From: Escherichia phage JEP8
DNA length: 64,000 bases
Reading direction: 5' to 3' (one strand)
Sequence record: MT764208.1
Shown here: piece by piece, positions 2,353-55,167 of the stretch
Layout of the letters: every line of letters starts with the position of its first letter
Numbering within the stretch: the stretch's first letter is position 1
Translations under genes and position numbers: made by a program
Notes under the pieces: generated by a model
Database searches by the model: none
What the model was told of the DNA's origin: nothing
What the model saw: only the letters and a program-made list of their open reading frames with translations

Positions 2353-4353
2353 ATGACTCTATTATCACCGGGTTTCGAAACGAAAGAAACTACTCTCTCC
2401 ACTACCATTGTGCAATCTGCGACTGGTCGCGCGGCACTGGTAGGTAAATTCCAATGGGGTCCAGCTTTCCAGATTATTCAAGTAACTAATGAAGTTGAAT
2501 TAGTTAATAAATTTGGTCAGCCGGATAATAACACCGCAGACTATTTCATGAGCGGGGCTAACTTCCTCCAGTACGGTAATGACCTGCGTGTTGTTCGTGT
2601 ATTGAATAAAGAAAAAGCGAAAAACGCAACCGCACTGGCTGGTAACGTCGAGTTTGAAATCACAAACGAAGGTTCAAACTATGAAGTAGGCGATACTATC
2701 AAGATTAAACATAACCGTCAAGATATTGAAACGGCGGGTAAAGTAACTAAAGTTGATGGTGATGGTAAAGTTAAGGGCGTATTTATCCCAACTGGTAAAA
2801 TTATCGCTCACGCTAAAGCAATCGGTGTATATCCAGAACTCGATGGCGGTTGGACGGCAGAGTTCACTTCTTCGTCAGGTAACGGTAGTGCGGCGCTGTC
2901 AGTAACTAAAATTGTCACTGATTCCGGTCTTCTGTTAACGGATCTGGAAACTTCCCGCGCCAATATCACAAATCAAACTTTCTTGACTAAACTCAAGAAA
3001 TATGATATGCCAGCGGTAAGCGCGATCTATGCTGGTGAGATTGGAAACTCGCTGGAAGTTGAAATTCTGGCGCGTAGTGCGTTTAAGAACACTGCACCGG
3101 ATCTGACCATGTATCCTTATGGTGGCGAGCGCACCGCAGCACGCAACCTGATTCCATATGCACCGCAGAATGATAATCAATATGCGTTTATTGTTCGTCG
3201 TGATGGTGTTGTGGTAGAATCCTATGTACTGTCTACTCTGAAAGGGGATAAAGACGTATACGGCAATTCTATCTATATGGACGACTTCTTTGCTCGTGGT
3301 TCTAGCCAGTACATCTATGCAACCGCTCAAGGGTGGGTAGATGGTTTCAGTGGTATTATCTCTCTTGCTGGTGGTGTTTCTGCTAACGAAGCAACGACTG
3401 CTGGTGTTGGTGCTGATCCGTTCATCGGTGCGATGATGCAAGGATGGGATCTGTTTGCTGAACGTGAATCTATTCACGTAAACCTGTTGATTGCTGGTGC
3501 ATGTGCTGGCGAAGGCGATGCGTTCTCTACCGTACAGAAACATGCTGTTTCCATCGGTGATGAGCGTCAGGATTGCTTAGTAATGGTTTCTCCGCCGCGT
3601 AGCACTGTTGTTAATATTCCGGTGACTACTGCAATTGATAACCTGATTGCATGGCGCGAAGGTTCAGGAAACTATAATGAAAACAACATGAACATTAATA
3701 CCACTTACGCGGTTATTGATGGTAACTACAAATATCAGTATGACAAATACAACGACGTAAACCGTTGGGTTCCGTTGGCTGCTGATATTGCTGGTTTGTG
3801 CGCTCGTACTGATGCTGTATCCCAGCCGTGGATGAGTCCGGCAGGTTATAACCGTGGTCAGATCATGAACGTGGTTAAACTGGCAATTGAGCCTCGCAAG
3901 GCGCACCGCGATCGTCTGTATCAGGCCGCAATTAACCCGGTAATCGGTGCTGGTGGTGAAGGGTTTATCCTGATGGGTGATAAAACCGCTACGACTGTTC
4001 CTAGCCCGTTTGACCGCATTAACGTTCGTCGTCTGTTTAACATGCTGAAAAAGAATATCGGCGATTCAAGCAAATACAAACTGTTTGAAAACAACGATAA
4101 CTTTACTCGCGCTTCCTTCCGTATGGAGGTTTCGCAATATCTCAGCACGATTCGCTCTCTGGGTGGCATTTATGACTTCCGAGTACAATGCGACACCACG
4201 AATAACACGCCGGATGTAATTGATCGTAACGAATTTGTTGCTAGTATGTTCATCAAACCAGCAAAATCGATCAACTATATCATGCTCAATTTCACTGCTG
4301 TTGCAACTGGTTCTGATTTTGACGAAATTATCGGTCCAGCTAACCAGGCATAA
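2353..4353 (+). CDS. 18: tail sheath protein (gp18-like)
   Basis: 666 aa; N-terminus MTLLSPGFETKETT… and overall match to T4 gp18; RBS GAGGAAA upstream. Confidence 0.93.
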   Translation: MTLLSPGFETKETTLSTTIVQSATGRAALVGKFQWGPAFQIIQVTNEVELVNKFGQPDNNTADYFMSGANFLQYGNDLRVVRVLNKEKAKNATALAGNVEFEITNEGSNYEVGDTIKIKHNRQDIETAGKVTKVDGDGKVKGVFIPTGKIIAHAKAIGVYPELDGGWTAEFTSSSGNGSAALSVTKIVTDSGLLLTDLETSRANITNQTFLTKLKKYDMPAVSAIYAGEIGNSLEVEILARSAFKNTAPDLTMYPYGGERTAARNLIPYAPQNDNQYAFIVRRDGVVVESYVLSTLKGDKDVYGNSIYMDDFFARGSSQYIYATAQGWVDGFSGIISLAGGVSANEATTAGVGADPFIGAMMQGWDLFAERESIHVNLLIAGACAGEGDAFSTVQKHAVSIGDERQDCLVMVSPPRSTVVNIPVTTAIDNLIAWREGSGNYNENNMNINTTYAVIDGNYKYQYDKYNDVNRWVPLAADIAGLCARTDAVSQPWMSPAGYNRGQIMNVVKLAIEPRKAHRDRLYQAAINPVIGAGGEGFILMGDKTATTVPSPFDRINVRRLFNMLKKNIGDSSKYKLFENNDNFTRASFRMEVSQYLSTIRSLGGIYDFRVQCDTTNNTPDVIDRNEFVASMFIKPAKSINYIMLNFTAVATGSDFDEIIGPANQA

Positions 4354-48629: not shown

Positions 48630-50873
48630 TTACAGCTTGCAAGATGAGCACTCGCTAGAGTCTTCCGTACCATCTGCACCGTCGCGAACGTTCGCATAAT
48701 ACAGGGTTTTCAGACCGTAATATTGAGCAAACAACATATCATCTAAAACATCAGCAATATCGACTTTACCAGTCTTATAAGTGCTTGGATCGTAGGATGT
48801 ATTGGAACTAATCGCCTGATCCACAAACTTCTGCATGATCGCTGCCAGTGTCAGATAAGGCTTGTTACCTTTCTTGATCAGTGTCCAAAGCAGGTCAATA
48901 ACATCAGCATTATTCTCTACGTTCGGAATGACCTGATTAAATTGCCCTTCTTTCGATCCTTTAACCGATACAATCCCGCGAGGCGGTTCAATACCGTTTG
49001 TGCTGTTAGATACCTGAGAAGACGACTCACACGGCATCAGCGCCGAAAGTGTACTGTTACGAATGCCATATTTTTTCAGGTCTTCGCGCAGTTCTTCCCA
49101 ATCCATCTCATACACAGGATCAACCAGTTCATCTACTGTCTTTTTGTACCAGTCGATAGGAAGTTCACCGCGACCATAGCGTGTTTCGTGCATCAGTTCG
49201 CAAGCACCCTTCTCTTTAGCCAGTTGCACACTAGCCTTAATCAGAGCATATTGCAAGCGTTCAAACGTTTTATGCGTAAACTCGTTAGCGTCTTCATATG
49301 TGAAGAAATTATCTGCTAGATATGATGCAAAGTTAGTCACACCAACACCCAGAGAGCGACGTTTTTTGGCTGTCAGAGCTTGTTCTACAGGATAATCCTG
49401 GTAATCTAACAGGTTGTCAAGTGCACGCACCATAACCATAGCGATCCGCTCTACTTCTTCCATATTTTCGATATCAAAGTTTCCTAAAACATATGCTGCC
49501 AAAGTACATAGGCTGATCTCTGAATCATCACGACCCATCGGTTTAGTAGGCAGAGCAATTTCACAACACAGGTTAGATTGTTTAATCGGTGCTACATTAC
49601 GAATAAACGCCCCGTGATTGTTCATGTTGTCTGTGAACGTTGGGTAGATTCGACCAGTGTTAAAACGTTCAATTGCCACCGCTAAAAACAGGTCTTCGGC
49701 TTTAACACGAGTTTTACGAACACTCGGATCTTTTTCCAGTTTTTCGTAAAGCTGACGGAAACCTTCCTCATCTCGGAAGTATAGATCCCACAACAAGCCA
49801 CCTGCAACATCTGGACTAAACAGAGTAATGTAATCCCGTTTAAGGAATCGCTCTACCATCAGGTTATTAATCTGTACGCCGTAATCAAGATGACGAATGC
49901 GGTTATCTTCCACCCCCTTATTGTTCTTTAACACAATCAGACTTTCAAACTCTAAATGCCACATTGGGTAATAGAGAGTCGCCGCCCCGCCACGAATACC
50001 GCCTTGTGAGCATGACTTAACAGCAGTCTGAAAATGTTTCCAGAATGGGATAACGCCAGTATGACGAACTTCACCATGCCCGATCTTAGATCCTTCCGCG
50101 CGAATCATGCCAGCGTTGATACCGATACCAGCACGCTTGCTAATATACTTGATGATTGCATTTGCTGTTTCGTTGATGCCCTGCAATGAGTCATCACTTT
50201 CAATCACAACACACGAACTAAATTGGCGTGTTGGTGTACGCACACCTGCCATAATCGGAGTAGGCAGAGAGATTTGCTTATTCGCAACAGCATTATAAAA
50301 ATCAATCACATGTTCAAGTCGATTTTCTGTCTCTTCTTGATGCAAGCACATACCGATCAGCATATACGCAAATTGCGGTGTTTCGATGATTTTCTTAGTG
50401 CTGCGATCCTGAACAAGATATTTCTCTTTTAACTGCATAGCACCAGCATAGGTCATTTTAAAATCAAGTTTATGGTCGATGAATTTCTCCAGATATTCCA
50501 CTTCTTCACGGGAATACTTTTGTAGAATTTCACGATCATATTTTCCGGTTGCAATATTACGCTCAATATGGCTGTAAAAATCAATCGGTTGGAATTGACC
50601 GTATACTGATTTGCGAAGCGCGAACATTGCAAGGTTACTTGCTACATATTGATAATCTGGTGTTTCTACAGTAATGTTATCTGCGGCGACCTTAATCAAT
50701 ACTTTCTGGATATCATTGGTAGACATACCTTCTGTCAGAAGTGGTTCAACCATATCAAACAATTCATATGGATCAACGTTATGACCTTCGGCTGCCGCTT
50801 CCAGAATTTTCATTACTTTTTCTTTTTCAAACGGAACAGTCAGACCGGAAGACTTAACAACATTTTTAATCAT
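48630..50873 (-). CDS. nrdA: ribonucleotide reductase large subunit (alpha)
   Basis: 747 aa; class Ia RNR catalytic subunit with ATP-cone N-terminus and C-terminal Cys pair. Confidence 0.95.
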   Translation of the reverse strand: MIKNVVKSSGLTVPFEKEKVMKILEAAAEGHNVDPYELFDMVEPLLTEGMSTNDIQKVLIKVAADNITVETPDYQYVASNLAMFALRKSVYGQFQPIDFYSHIERNIATGKYDREILQKYSREEVEYLEKFIDHKLDFKMTYAGAMQLKEKYLVQDRSTKKIIETPQFAYMLIGMCLHQEETENRLEHVIDFYNAVANKQISLPTPIMAGVRTPTRQFSSCVVIESDDSLQGINETANAIIKYISKRAGIGINAGMIRAEGSKIGHGEVRHTGVIPFWKHFQTAVKSCSQGGIRGGAATLYYPMWHLEFESLIVLKNNKGVEDNRIRHLDYGVQINNLMVERFLKRDYITLFSPDVAGGLLWDLYFRDEEGFRQLYEKLEKDPSVRKTRVKAEDLFLAVAIERFNTGRIYPTFTDNMNNHGAFIRNVAPIKQSNLCCEIALPTKPMGRDDSEISLCTLAAYVLGNFDIENMEEVERIAMVMVRALDNLLDYQDYPVEQALTAKKRRSLGVGVTNFASYLADNFFTYEDANEFTHKTFERLQYALIKASVQLAKEKGACELMHETRYGRGELPIDWYKKTVDELVDPVYEMDWEELREDLKKYGIRNSTLSALMPCESSSQVSNSTNGIEPPRGIVSVKGSKEGQFNQVIPNVENNADVIDLLWTLIKKGNKPYLTLAAIMQKFVDQAISSNTSYDPSTYKTGKVDIADVLDDMLFAQYYGLKTLYYANVRDGADGTEDSSECSSCKL

Positions 50874-50920: not shown

Positions 50921-50944
50921 GGGGGCTTTCGCCCCCTTTTGTTT
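50921..50944 (+). terminator. plus-oriented intrinsic terminator-like hairpin between td and nrdA
   Basis: GGGGGC-tttc-GCCCCC followed by TTTTGTTT on the plus strand although flanking genes are on the minus strand. Confidence 0.4.
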
Positions 50945-52175
50945 ATACTGCCATTTGAGCGGTGATCGCTGGATGGCTTTGATAGTTGTGAATTTTAAAG
51001 TCTTTCGGAGTCTTTGTCAATACCTCATCTAAAGATTTAAATTCCGGCAACTCGATTGTTGGTTTATCAAACGGAACACGGCTTAACTGTTCCATAACTT
51101 GATCAAAATGGTTTTTGTAAATGTGAGTATCTCCACCAGAGAAAATCAGTTCTCCTACCTCAAGGTCACACATTTTAGCTATGATGTGAGTTAACAGCGC
51201 ATAGCTGGCGACGTTAAAGGGCAAGCCCAAAAAGCTGTCTACGCTTCGCTGAAACCACATACAAGACAGTTTACCCTCATTGACATAGAATTGCACGAAC
51301 GGATGACATACACCTAATACAGCATTATGTGTTCCTTGTACGTTCCATGAGTCAATGATGATACGTCGATCCGTTGGATTGTTTTTAATTTGTTCAATCA
51401 CGTTTTGTAACTGGTCTTCCCAAATCTTCGGGCGATAGACATATTCTTCATCGTCTTTAGTGCTCGATGTGTCTACGTCCATACTAGCAAAGATCGTGGT
51501 ATCGGGTGCTAAAATATCCCCACCCAGATAATCACTATCAAGCAGATAACCGAAATAACCATCATCTACCCATTCCTGGAATCCCCACAAGCAATATGCA
51601 TCATTAACAAAATTAGATTGAGTCTTCCAGTGATCTGCTACTAAGAATTGATTATATTCAGAATCAAACTCTTCATAACGCATACCACGCCAGATAGCAC
51701 ATAAACGGTCTTCTGTGTCGTTGGTTGGCGTAAAGTCTTCTACCCACGGGTGTTTAAATGTATGTGTATATTTGCTCTTAACGCGCTTAATTTTGATTTC
51801 ACCGTGTGGATGAATCGGTTTGCGTCGCCATGCCATACCATACATATTGCCAACATTATAGCCGTTGAATCGTAGCGGATTCTTTTCTTTCATATCAAGA
51901 CAGTTGCCGCGCCAAATGTCGAAGGCTTCTTCGTCAAACTGACCGCGTGTAATTTCCTGTAATCGACGGCGGTCAAGTGATCCCTCCATAAACCATAGCA
52001 ACTCGCCAATTACAGAGGCTGTAGCCATCTTTTTAGTGGTCAGTAATGGGAAACCCTTGCTTAAATCAATTCGCATCTCTGCGCCGAATTTAGAGAGCGT
52101 ACCTACCCCCGTGCGGTCTTCACGAGGCCAGCCATTATCAAGAACATCACGCAATAGTTTCAAATATTCTTTCAT
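50943..52175 (-). CDS. td: thymidylate synthase (ThyA/Td type) with a large internal insertion
   Basis: 410 aa; TS motifs …DRTGVGT…, …NPTDRRIIIDSWN…, catalytic …VCHPFVQFYV…, …FQRSVDSFLGLPFNVASYALL…; about 115 extra residues between the …MYGMAWRR… and …DQLQNVIEQIK… blocks. Confidence 0.9.
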   Translation of the reverse strand: MKEYLKLLRDVLDNGWPREDRTGVGTLSKFGAEMRIDLSKGFPLLTTKKMATASVIGELLWFMEGSLDRRRLQEITRGQFDEEAFDIWRGNCLDMKEKNPLRFNGYNVGNMYGMAWRRKPIHPHGEIKIKRVKSKYTHTFKHPWVEDFTPTNDTEDRLCAIWRGMRYEEFDSEYNQFLVADHWKTQSNFVNDAYCLWGFQEWVDDGYFGYLLDSDYLGGDILAPDTTIFASMDVDTSSTKDDEEYVYRPKIWEDQLQNVIEQIKNNPTDRRIIIDSWNVQGTHNAVLGVCHPFVQFYVNEGKLSCMWFQRSVDSFLGLPFNVASYALLTHIIAKMCDLEVGELIFSGGDTHIYKNHFDQVMEQLSRVPFDKPTIELPEFKSLDEVLTKTPKDFKIHNYQSHPAITAQMAV

Positions 52176-52416
52176 CCCACATCACCTTTTTCTTATTGAT
52201 TGCTTTCTTACGCAGTTTTGCTACTGTCTCGTCAATATTGATAAAGACAACGCCCGGATCGAATACAGTAACAGGTCTTGAAATGTCGCTATTTTCCTGT
52301 ACTGGAAGCCATGACGCTTGAGCTTCATCATAGAGATATTGTAAGCCGTAATAATCTACGGCTACTGCGTAGTTTTCACTGGTAGCCGTCCATAATTGAA
52401 TAATACTGATTTTCAT
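52147..52416 (-). CDS. hypothetical protein (about 89 aa)
   Basis: track ORF; start placed at internal Met MKISIIQLW…; overlaps td start. Confidence 0.3.
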   Translation of the reverse strand: MKISIIQLWTATSENYAVAVDYYGLQYLYDEAQASWLPVQENSDISRPVTVFDPGVVFINIDETVAKLRKKAINKKKVMWDERIFETIA

Positions 52417-52509
52417 TATTGTTCCCGTCCACAATGTAAACACCGACTACCAGCAAACATCAAAGATTCACCACAATGTTTGCACTCATAATCTGTCAGA
52501 ATTTTCATG

Positions 52510-53091
52510 TTACGCCTTCTTACGTTCTAAAATTTGTTCGCTGACCAGGTAATCATCAAGGAAGTAATTATGTTCTTCTTTTGTTGCAAAGTTAAAATAT
52601 AATTCCTGAATCATTTCCTTAGAGATTCCAACATCATGTTCAAATGGATCGTTGATCCCTGAACGTTGAACATACGTTAACACAATACGGTCCGCAAAGT
52701 CAACCGCTTTTTCAATCAGGGAAGGTCCACCGATAACACTTACCAAACCTTGCAATTTCTCTATGACTTCTAATAATTCCTTCAATCCACCATCATTAGT
52801 AATCGCGGTATACACATCAGGTTGTTCGCCGTTTTTTGCTTTCGGTGCTGGCTTACTGGTATCGGTACTAACAACCACATTCACACGACCTTCCAGTGCT
52901 TTAGGGAGACTTTCAAAGGTATTACGTCCCATTACAACCGCCGCAAGATCAACATCTCCCATAGTGCGCATTTTAAAGTTTTCCATGTCCTTTTTGATTG
53001 GACGACCCCACGGTAAACCGCCTTTAAAACCAAACGCCCAATTTTCATCTGACATTTTAGTGTCACCAATCGCAAATACACATTGAATCAT
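52510..53091 (-). CDS. frd: dihydrofolate reductase
   Basis: 193 aa; …GFKGGLPWGRPIKKDMENFK…VMGRNTFESLP… DHFR signature. Confidence 0.85.
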   Translation of the reverse strand: MIQCVFAIGDTKMSDENWAFGFKGGLPWGRPIKKDMENFKMRTMGDVDLAAVVMGRNTFESLPKALEGRVNVVVSTDTSKPAPKAKNGEQPDVYTAITNDGGLKELLEVIEKLQGLVSVIGGPSLIEKAVDFADRIVLTYVQRSGINDPFEHDVGISKEMIQELYFNFATKEEHNYFLDDYLVSEQILERKKA

Positions 53092-53467: not shown

Positions 53468-53495
53468 ATTATACACTATTGCGTTACGCTGTCAA
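53468..53495 (-). promoter_or_regulatory. PeSL-type early promoter (TTGACA-N16-TATAAT)
   Basis: minus-strand; approximate. Confidence 0.5.
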
Positions 53496-55112
53496 CTCTT
53501 TTTCAAAAGTTTTTACGATATACATGATAGTGCTCAATTCAGACGGCGCTACTGTTTCTGTGTAGCCATCCGGCATATCTTCTTTTGAGATATAGGAAGT
53601 TTTACCTTTCATCGCTTCCTTGATCTTGTTCTCTAAGTCTAAGATCTTTTGACCGTCTTGTAAAGTCAATTCATAAAAGATCTCGTGGTTGAATTTGGAA
53701 AGTCGAGATTGACCTCCAATTCGTTCTTTTGTTGTTCTATTGGTTATTCCAAATTTAACGCCAACGAATATTTTTTCTTTTATTAGTTTTTGAATATACA
53801 ATACTCCTTTTTTTAAGGTATTATATCCATATTGTGCGCATTTAGGACAACGAGTTCCTTTCTGAAAGTTTGTTATTGTCGGTGTAAATTCATGGCCTTC
53901 ACTACACACCAAATTTAACTTTGTAGACACACCGTTCCATTCTCCAATAAATCCATTAAATATGATATTTTCTTTTTCGAAAATTGGTTTAAGTCTTTCA
54001 AGATATTCTTCTTTTGATAATGCATAATTATTTGCACATTTAGGACAACGAGTTCCATTCTGAAAACTGGATATGATAGGAGTGAAATTGTGGCCTTCAC
54101 AACACACCAAATCCAATTTTGTTACGTTACCTTTCCACTCACCAACGATTCCATTACAGGTTATATTTTCTTTAATAAATATCGGTGCTAATTTTTCGAA
54201 ATATTCTTCCTTTGGAATCAATTTACGTTCTCTTAATTTAAGAGCTTTACATTTCGGACAGCGGCGACCTTGTTGAAAAACTGCTATGCTCGGGGTGTAA
54301 TTGTGTTTTTCATTACACACCAAATTCAGCCTAGTTCTGCTACCTTTCCACTCACCAACGATTCCATTACAGGTTATATTTTCTTCAACGAAGATTGGTT
54401 TTAATCTTTTAAAATATTCTTCTTTTGATATTTTTCTACTGTTTCTCCAGTTGATAATACCGCAGGTCGAACACCTATTACCGGATTGAAAACCGTTTAC
54501 AGTCGGTGTAAATTTATGGCCTTCACTACACAATAAATTCATTTTTGTTGTGCTTCCGTTCCATTCTCCAATAAATCCATTAAATACGATATTTTCTTTT
54601 TCGAAAATTGGTTTAAGTCTTTCAAGATATTCTTCTTTTGATAGTAATTTCAATTCTCTTAATTTAAGAGCTTTACATTTAGGACAACGACTTCCGACCT
54701 GAAATGCTGTTATCGTCGGAGTAAATTCATGATCCTCACAACATGTTAAGTTTAGTTTTGTGTGCACGCCTTTCCATTCTCCGACGAATCCATTAAACTT
54801 TATATTTTCCTCAATAAAGATTGGTTTAAGTTTTTTATAATATTCTTCTTTTGATAGGGCATAATTATTTGCGCATCTAGAGCATCGTTTACCTTTTTGA
54901 AAATCTGATATTCTTGGTGTAAATTCATGTCCTTCACAACACACCAAACCCAATTTTGTTACGTTACCTTTCCACTCACCAACAAATCCATTAAATACGA
55001 TATTTTCTTTTTCGAAAATTGGTTTAAGTCTTTCGTAATATTCCAATGGGCTAATCGAGTTATAATTTTTCTTAACCCATTCAATCTCATGCGCCTTACG
55101 TACCAACATCAT
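53484..55112 (-). CDS. tandem-repeat zinc-ribbon protein (six repeats of about 70 aa; homing-endonuclease-associated-repeat-like)
   Basis: start placed at MMLVRKAHEIEW…; six repeats of consensus EEY.ERLKPIFEKENI.FNGF.GEWKG..TKLNL.C.EGHEFTP.I..FQ.G.RCPKC; C-terminal 110 aa non-repetitive. Confidence 0.5.
   Translation of the reverse strand: MMLVRKAHEIEWVKKNYNSISPLEYYERLKPIFEKENIVFNGFVGEWKGNVTKLGLVCCEGHEFTPRISDFQKGKRCSRCANNYALSKEEYYKKLKPIFIEENIKFNGFVGEWKGVHTKLNLTCCEDHEFTPTITAFQVGSRCPKCKALKLRELKLLSKEEYLERLKPIFEKENIVFNGFIGEWNGSTTKMNLLCSEGHKFTPTVNGFQSGNRCSTCGIINWRNSRKISKEEYFKRLKPIFVEENITCNGIVGEWKGSRTRLNLVCNEKHNYTPSIAVFQQGRRCPKCKALKLRERKLIPKEEYFEKLAPIFIKENITCNGIVGEWKGNVTKLDLVCCEGHNFTPIISSFQNGTRCPKCANNYALSKEEYLERLKPIFEKENIIFNGFIGEWNGVSTKLNLVCSEGHEFTPTITNFQKGTRCPKCAQYGYNTLKKGVLYIQKLIKEKIFVGVKFGITNRTTKERIGGQSRLSKFNHEIFYELTLQDGQKILDLENKIKEAMKGKTSYISKEDMPDGYTETVAPSELSTIMYIVKTFEKELTA
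53600..54990 (-). repeat. about 210-bp tandem coding repeats (x6) within the zinc-ribbon repeat gene
   Basis: repeated DNA segments correspond to the protein repeats; boundaries approximate. Confidence 0.6.
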
Positions 55113-55139
55113 TTTATCCTCCGTTGTTTCGATGTGTGC

Positions 55140-55167
55140 ATTATACATTACATCATCAGCATGTCAA
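55140..55167 (-). promoter_or_regulatory. PeSL-type early promoter (TTGACA-N16-TATAAT) upstream of the repeat protein gene
   Basis: minus-strand; approximate. Confidence 0.5.

Follow-up and report, generated by a model that had tools for sequence, protein, structure and literature searches.

The window analysed here, a stretch of 64,000 nucleotides from Escherichia phage JEP8 (sequence record MT764208.1), encodes on its minus strand td, a ThyA-type thymidylate synthase (TS) of 410 amino acids (aa) whose conserved core is split by a 136-residue in-frame insert. The td gene shares 97% nucleotide identity with that of phage RB49, which places the window in Krischvirus, the RB49-like, T4-related coliphages. 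Longer, modular homologues of the insert occupy the same loop in other phage enzymes and are related to proteins annotated as HNH endonucleases. We read the Krischvirus insert as what is left, now fixed and degenerate, of a homing-endonuclease-like unit that was inserted in frame and is not spliced out, and assign this reading a probability of about two in three.

The enzyme core is canonical. The td reading frame is single and uninterrupted over 410 codons, and the plus-strand frame is full of stops. Pfam PF00303 matches with E=1e-84 and 284 bits (cutoff 24.3), its alignment divided between aa 1 to ~117 and aa 254-410, and TIGR03284 scores 283.6 bits against a cutoff of 108.35. Alignment with Escherichia coli ThyA covers aa 1-82 and 254-410, and residue mapping shows that td keeps the catalytic and substrate-binding positions R21, K48, E58, W88, Y112, R270/R271, C290, and H291 and, further, Q309, R310, S311, D313, N321, H351, and Y353. 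All residues that mark ThyA membership are thus present, namely the Cys-His pair, the four phosphate-binding arginines, and the equivalents of Asn177, Asp169, Tyr94, His207, and Tyr209. The single change among the mapped residues, W83 to N, also occurs in phage T4 Td. An initial annotation made from the sequence letters had recognised a thymidylate synthase with all catalytic motifs and had given the limits and length of the gene correctly, while leaving the strand unstated. The enzyme very probably works with the insert in place. We infer conversion of deoxyuridine monophosphate (dUMP) to deoxythymidine monophosphate (dTMP) from the low ratio of nonsynonymous to synonymous polymorphism in the core (pN/pS 0.03) and from the frd-td-nrdA context.

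The insert lies between the conserved R of YG.QWR and the D of DQ. This loop counts 136 residues in td, compared with 10 in E. coli, 10 in L. casei, 5 in T4 (DFGGV), and 18 in the human enzyme, so that the net insertion relative to E. coli ThyA and T4 Td is ~126-131 aa. The initial annotation had located a sizeable in-frame insertion here, flanked by YGMAWR(R) and (E)DQLQNV, a position borne out by the alignment; its size estimate of ~115 aa was too low. The junctions read WRR/KPIH and KIWE/DQL. On the outgoing side a P..PHG....R motif is conserved in most insert-bearing TS, and an RP.I motif ahead of DQ is likewise conserved in insert-bearing enzymes. Around the insert there are no junction repeats or insertion scar, no foreign GC content, and no base-composition anomaly.

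It is this same loop that is longer in eukaryotic enzymes. The 50-aa small-domain insert of L. casei sits upstream of YG.QWR, and the L. casei loop at the td insert site has its normal 10 aa, which therefore makes the L. casei insert a different site. An insert of the L. casei type was ruled out for td, where the additional residues follow YGMAWR rather than lying between IWDEW and YG.QWR. The link to a small-domain insert site proposed in the initial annotation is only loosely right.

An AlphaFold2 (AF2) model of td, built with an alignment of 38 relatives, reaches a mean predicted local distance difference test score (pLDDT) of 93.8 and a predicted template modelling score (pTM) of 0.92, and matches E. 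coli TS with a target-normalised template modelling (TM) score of 0.93 (Foldseek). Model confidence is as high in the insert (pLDDT 89-98) as in the core, with block 171-180 as the sole lower-confidence loop (pLDDT 75), and the insert gives the same picture when folded alone (pLDDT 91.2). In the model, strands 118-130 and 245-254 are read as a two-stranded beta stalk that bears a compact helical tip (Table 1), with strand pairing and placement relative to the dimer as suggested by the secondary-structure output.

Table 1. Position of td, its parts, and its neighbours in the window.
Feature	Positions	Strand	Basis
td, ThyA-type thymidylate synthase, 410 aa plus stop	50943..52175	-	Open reading frame list, PF00303, TIGR03284, RB49 identity, AF2
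N-terminal core, aa 1-117, ends YGMAWR	51825..52175	-	Aligned with E. coli ThyA 1-~99; pN/pS 0.03
In-frame insert, aa 118-253, 136 aa	51417..51824	-	Loop of 10 aa in E. coli, 5 aa in T4; pN/pS 0.24
Stalk, outgoing strand, aa 118-130 (KPIHPHGEIKIKR)	51786..51824	-	DSSP strand on AF2 model
Globular tip, aa 131-244; helices 153-169, 181-193, 199-204; strands 210-213, 228-231	51444..51785	-	Probable remnant of nuclease-like module
SEYN, aa 172-175, in-frame 4-codon indel, polymorphic in Krischvirus	51651..51662	-	Gene comparison
LDSDY, aa 212-216, probable decayed counterpart of invariant LDKDY	51528..51542	-	Long inserts and free-standing relatives compared
Stalk, returning strand, aa 245-253 (YVYRPKIWE)	51417..51443	-	DSSP strand 245-254
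C-terminal core, aa 254-410, holds catalytic Cys290	50943..51416	-	E. coli ThyA 110-264, 165 bits; residue mapping
frd (dihydrofolate reductase), upstream neighbour in frd-td-nrdA block	52510..53091	-	PF00186, E=1e-20
nrdA (class Ia ribonucleotide reductase large subunit), downstream neighbour	48630..50873	-	747-aa open reading frame; NrdA in RB49 and JSE annotation

The variability of the site, where 28-33 aa are found in some phage enzymes besides the 5, 10, and 18 aa of T4, E. coli, and human, would fit an ordinary TS loop that has grown long and has no separate origin. Such an origin is nevertheless highly improbable: the 136 residues are confidently predicted to fold as a domain of their own, families annotated as endonucleases are matched at E=1e-35 by homologous inserts, which reach 284 aa, and the known bacterial insert of L. 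casei is located elsewhere. Moreover, insert-less relatives have 5-33 aa at this loop versus 127-284 aa in insert-bearing ones, so that the refuting case named in the initial annotation, an ordinary variable loop of similar length in close relatives, is not what the comparison shows.

Introns and inteins are frequent in phage nucleotide-metabolism genes, and T4 td itself has a group I intron (Edgell 2010, PMC2988022), which would favour an intein, a mini-intein, or an unrecognised in-frame intron that is removed before the enzyme is made. We regard removal as scarcely credible. An intron is ruled out by the continuous frame, by a scan in which no Rfam family, group I introns included, was found anywhere in the window, and by the protein-like substitution pattern of the insert (pN/pS 0.24). 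An intein is ruled out by the insert junctions, which have no Cys/Ser/Ala start, no His-Asn end, and no following Cys/Ser/Thr, and by the absence of any Hint or intein match in Pfam for short or long inserts. Further, the long inserts are wholly covered by endonuclease-like modules, and AF2 folds the td insert as a domain continuous with the core. The initial annotation had already called the gene uninterrupted and free of intein features, and on both counts we agree.

Searched alone, the insert finds nothing in Pfam, PDB sequences, or NCBIfam. A phmmer search of 1.84 billion representative proteins returned 12 proteins, 11 of which are TS with an insertion at the same loop (E=2e-10 to 7e-4), and no free-standing relative of the td insert; the twelfth, a repetitive protein of 782 aa, has no aligned stretch and was taken as a chance match. 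Combined with a full-length search, this yields a set of insert-bearing phage TS of 401-613 aa, whose inserts fall into short (127-145 aa), middle (173-207 aa), and long (228-284 aa) classes. Insert-bearing TS made up more than 40 clusters in all, and the true number is probably higher.

Some members of this set deviate outside the insert as well. P0019 (613 aa) and the truncated P0132 (490 aa) have an extra N-terminal extension of ~95-100 aa (…KKLTENEKIELSC…) ahead of the enzyme. In P0122, P0125, P0126, and P0128 (448-518 aa, insert-bearing), TRSG or TRAG replaces the DRTG(T/V)GT phosphate-binding loop, and the proteins end in ...LSVG, not ...MAV; their substrate or activity may depart from that of canonical ThyA.

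Long-form enzymes include ThyA of Klebsiella phage KP13-7 (517 aa) and the T4-like P0008 (524 aa). The long inserts consist of three modules. The first is beta-rich (..VI.F..TGS....IKD...PSV.GVGYLG), the second is helical and ends in an invariant LDKDY...YSP.TC.F...N, and the third forms the C-terminal part. D164-K165-D166-Y167 is invariant in 16 long or mid-length inserts, and LDKD is also present in free-standing proteins. Four PHROG families, all annotated as 'HNH endonuclease', are matched by long inserts with E=1e-35 to 1e-7: phrog_2081, for which E is 1e-23 to 1e-35, phrog_953, phrog_374, and phrog_3377. By hhalign, long inserts align with three free-standing proteins at E=7e-25, and the short, Krischvirus-type inserts align with free-standing HNH-annotated proteins at E=2e-5 (probability 76%). 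The direct match of the td insert to phrog_2081 is weak (E=0.2) and in the same register. A tblastn search with one long insert found similar sequence in 1440 phage records, mostly annotated as HNH endonuclease, DNA-binding, or hypothetical protein. The long-insert profile had 12 matches, three of them free-standing, in a 5.8-billion word-indexed collection, where the word index limits reach, and a viral contig scan with a single protein yielded two near-identical loci only. Pfam contains no NUMOD, AP2, or HNH model that matches the long inserts.

The free-standing relatives occupy classic homing-endonuclease positions. In Bacillus phage BSP15, gp120 stands between two pieces of a split DNA polymerase gene; in Staphylococcus phage 184DA, a relative lies between two pieces of nrdB; and in Vibrio phage D391, between the primase and DNA polymerase genes. 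The module shared with the inserts is N-terminal in BSP15 gp120 and is followed by two PF22083 I-HmuI NUMOD-like domains. Since these NUMOD-like domains come after it, the shared module stands in the place of the nuclease domain of I-HmuI-type enzymes. The copy in Bacillus phage pW2 has an AP2 domain, and the isoelectric point (pI) of the free-standing proteins is 8.5-8.6. Vibrio phage K408 encodes a 273-aa 'HNH endonuclease' with the long-insert modules (L011:1387-2208) 225 nucleotides (nt) upstream of an insert-less td (2433-3281), an arrangement which hints at an association of the endonuclease family with td.

In some phages outside Krischvirus the insert behaves as an optional and probably mobile element. 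On neighbour-joining trees of corrected p-distances over core columns, insert-bearing TS are never monophyletic (0/100 bootstraps), and P0024 and P0025, with inserts of 281 and 284 aa, nest among insert-less enzymes in 100/100. The core of P0024 is 91% identical to that of the insert-less P0054 and only 57% identical to any other insert-bearing core except P0025. These three genes reside in syntenic phage contigs with dihydrofolate reductase (DHFR) directly upstream, and the td sequences that flank the insertion point are 80-93% identical at the DNA level. In this phage group, distant from Krischvirus, P0024 and P0054 thus appear as an occupied and an empty allele of the same WR...DQ site that is filled in Krischvirus td. 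The linkers of P0024 and P0025 differ from the P..PHG and RP.I linkers of the other lineages and resemble the 28-aa hairpin of P0054, a likeness suggestive of an independent insertion at the tip of a hairpin already in place.

Extensions of 28-33 aa at this loop, for example NRYVEQKDFGEAHLGGRRVAVDKTE, are found in four TS of 299-304 aa (P0054, P0074, P0114, and P0034; L017, L018). They may represent a pre-existing hairpin that took the insert, or the deletion stump of one.

The short forms are not monophyletic in any replicate either (0/100), and P0009 and P0013 group with the long-form jumbo-phage enzymes in 70/100, which indicates that short forms arose at least twice. A T4-like frd-td-nrdA-nrdB neighbourhood surrounds the long form P0008 as well as the short form P0006.

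Within Krischvirus, all 58 related phage records carry td with the insert over its whole length, and no empty allele was found among them. Across 11 Krischvirus td genes, the N-terminal core has a pN/pS of 0.03, the final 58 codons one of 0.08, and the insert one of 0.24. The insert thus evolves ~8x faster than the N-terminal core relative to synonymous change, yet is constrained. The SEYN codons are present in the window, RB49, Skers, SSG23, and an ECD7-like contig and absent from JSE, ELT3, Phi1, PHB13, and GoldenSnicker, giving the alleles FDSEYNQFLV and FD----YILV in the lower-confidence loop of the model.

A further difference among these genes lies outside the insert. In JSE (L003:3001-4224), ELT3 (L004), and Skers (L005), td has a highly divergent patch of ~95 codons, corresponding to window aa ~258-350 (~51126-51404), that starts just past the insert and spans the catalytic Cys region. 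The patch comprises ~44 amino-acid changes with saturated synonymous sites and resembles the P0003-P0005 type (LFFMRSND.FLGNPFN); outside it, the gene is nearly identical. It looks like a gene-conversion or mosaic tract.

Compared with the long forms, the Krischvirus insert is truncated. The first and third modules are absent, LDSD replaces LDKD (K to S), and the helix with the conserved N is missing. DNA-binding modules, represented by PF22083 or AP2 in free-standing relatives and by the C-terminal module in long inserts, are likewise absent from it. Long inserts are basic, mostly with pI 8.3-9.6 (the two exceptions among 15 are P0014 at 6.6 and P0020 at 5.8), whereas the Krischvirus insert is acidic, with pI 4.8 overall, 4.3 in the tip, and a net charge of -11. 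Given this loss of modules, motif, and charge, it is very probable that the Krischvirus insert no longer cuts or binds DNA.

This bears directly on the proposal that the window insert can still cut DNA site-specifically, or at least serve as a DNA-binding homing module, and thereby spread its td allele. Its homology to intact-looking long inserts would speak for such activity. However, the K to S change in DKD, the absence of the N-bearing helix and of the two outer modules, and the charge of -11 all argue against it, as does the lack of empty target alleles among close relatives that follows from fixation in the genus. We consider present activity very improbable.

In the scenario that we favour, an HNH-like nuclease module with DNA-binding modules would have entered td in frame, without intron or intein, in an ancestor of these T4-like phages, in an insertion presumably driven by the endonuclease itself. 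The unit would be translated with the enzyme and retained in its mature form as a stalked domain, tolerated because it is placed at a hairpin tip, away from the catalytic core. In other phages the unit would still be complete, presumably able to cut DNA, and would act as an optional, probably mobile element. In Krischvirus it would have become fixed and would have lost its N-terminal beta module, its C-terminal DNA-binding module, the LDKD...N motif, its positive charge and, with them, the cutting activity. The remnant would be kept mainly because it has to fold cleanly for the enzyme to fold, so that its constraint would reflect foldability over a new function.

Several points weigh against this reading. 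The term 'HNH endonuclease' is an annotation from PHROG and GenBank, and the activity behind it is putative. Pfam and NCBIfam hold no model for the shared module, no curated HNH model matches any member, and the long-insert profile has one chance match only among PDB sequences, so that no solved structure is reached by sequence. In the module, Lys takes the position of the catalytic His of canonical HNH enzymes, and the motif reads LDKD...N, not His...Asn...His/Asn. The evidence for homing and mobility consists of sequence patterns, and the trees cover a limited sample. Selection on the long forms is ambiguous. In pairs of T4-like (P0007/P0008) and Alcyoneusvirus-like (P0011/P0012/P0014) enzymes, the ratio of nonsynonymous to synonymous substitution (dN/dS) is 0.10-0.19 in the insert versus 0.07-0.10 in the core, values that are rough because dS, at 1.2-2.0, comes close to saturation. 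The long inserts are nonetheless clearly conserved as proteins and under purifying selection, and selection of this strength suits a useful domain as well as an active selfish element. In Krischvirus, too, fixation in the 58 records, the confident fold, and a pN/pS of 0.24 also fit a domain with its own function.

These last observations lead to the alternative that the insert is an exapted accessory domain, either an acidic docking or regulatory surface for the T4-type nucleotide-synthesis and replication machinery or a DNA mimic, for which endonuclease ancestry is only history. The shift from a basic to a strongly acidic protein, most pronounced in the tip, could then be a gain and not decay alone, pN/pS lies well under 1, and short forms that arose independently at least twice were kept thereafter. 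Against a recruited function stand a constraint ~8x weaker than in the N-terminal core, the polymorphic 4-aa indel, and the nature of the retained motifs (W, F, WGFQEWVD, APDT.IF), which are core-packing residues with no obvious new surface. No positive evidence for a partner was found, and even a useless domain would have to go on folding while it is part of an enzyme. We judge exaptation unlikely, but it is the main rival to the relic reading. The initial annotation had suggested a novel accessory domain or docking surface. The evidence points first to HNH-annotated endonuclease relatives, and a docking role could be secondary to this origin.

Beyond the relic in Krischvirus, the data permit a broader and more tentative proposal, which we hold to be possible but short of even odds. 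HNH-like homing endonucleases may colonise phage td directly and in frame, between the WR and DQ codons; the complete forms would cut empty alleles and home, and Krischvirus would represent the burnt-out end of this process. The phages colonised would be T4-like phages, Alcyoneusvirus jumbo phages, and one group seen in metagenomic contigs only, in each of which DHFR adjoins td.

A close known system is the td group I intron of T4 with I-TevI, along with other intron-borne homing endonucleases of phage nucleotide-metabolism genes. Both the T4 intron and the insert concern the same host gene in T4-like phages, with a homing-endonuclease-type gene inside a conserved enzyme gene, and split genes, those for DNA polymerase and nrdB, likewise house free-standing relatives of the insert. 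In contrast to the T4 element, the td insert has no intron, is translated with the enzyme, occupies a surface loop rather than active-site codons, and is HNH-like, not GIY-YIG. Phage inteins with HNH endonucleases (bioRxiv 10.1101/2025.01.02.630785) are alike in being in-frame endonuclease-type units translated with a conserved phage enzyme. The intein-bearing thymidylate synthases of that survey are listed under InterPro IPR003669 (bioRxiv 10.1101/2025.01.02.630785). Unlike inteins, the td insert has neither a splicing domain nor junction residues and is predicted to stay in place as a stalked domain. The family IPR003669 is one that we take to be ThyX. The module order of BSP15 gp120 is that of the I-HmuI-like HNH enzymes of Bacillus phages, with an N-terminal nuclease followed by NUMOD-like repeats.

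Among thymidylate synthases, the eukaryotic insert (human ~117-128) occupies the same loop, at 18 aa versus the 10 of E. coli. The L. casei and eukaryotic inserts resemble that of td as tolerated surface elaborations on the small-domain side of the enzyme. They differ in not being autonomous foreign domains, whereas the td insert comprises 136 aa and its relatives up to 284 aa.

In the standard view, it is as passengers of self-splicing introns or inteins that homing endonucleases gain entry to highly conserved genes (Stoddard 2014, PMC3943268). A non-spliced copy, in frame within an enzyme, varies the intron and intein theme and has partial precedents. The endonuclease gene mobE splits nrdA in Aeromonas phage Aeh1, and LAGLIDADG genes are fused in frame into fungal mitochondrial rps3. 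As in td, an endonuclease gene resides there in a host gene without intron or intein, and the host function survives. In Aeh1, however, nrdA is broken into two polypeptides, while td remains one polypeptide with the unit as an internal domain. A literature search that did not cover the RB49 genome paper found no description of an RB49-type td insert or of an endonuclease-like domain inside ThyA. The td gene itself is known: the annotation of the RB49 genome has given td this length from its deposition onward.

Taken by itself, the window provides a modest result, an explanation of the odd length of td in RB49-like phages; the complete forms elsewhere are of more interest. The inserts form a series that starts with complete, constrained, and optional copies and ends with what would be an eroded stump, now fixed. 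Should the complete forms prove active, a host gene can be spared by placing the insertion at the tip of a hairpin instead of by splicing, and insertion of this kind would constitute a third route, beside introns and inteins, for a selfish nuclease into a conserved gene. As a large domain insertion that a well-studied enzyme tolerates in nature, td also offers a permissive site and a stalk design for protein engineering. The insert further matters for annotation, because several of the 400-600 aa proteins that contain it are labelled 'hypothetical protein'.

The frd-td-nrdA order of the window is also found in JSE and in contigs with long or short TS inserts. Between frd and td, a 98-aa open reading frame (ORF) with a GTG start (52147-52443, minus strand) overlaps the start of td by 29 nt. 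It has no Pfam match, and the records of RB49, JSE, and other phages list an overlapping ORF as a hypothetical protein, with 270 nt versus 297 nt here. On the other side of frd, a 554-aa ORF (53484-55148, minus strand) is built of CapR homology domains, six in tandem (PF21817, E=9e-32), has treble-clef or zinc-ribbon matches, and looks like a homing-endonuclease-related DNA-binding protein. It also looks like an optional insertion beside frd-td, because the interval from gp32 to frd in JSE is without an annotated ORF of this size.

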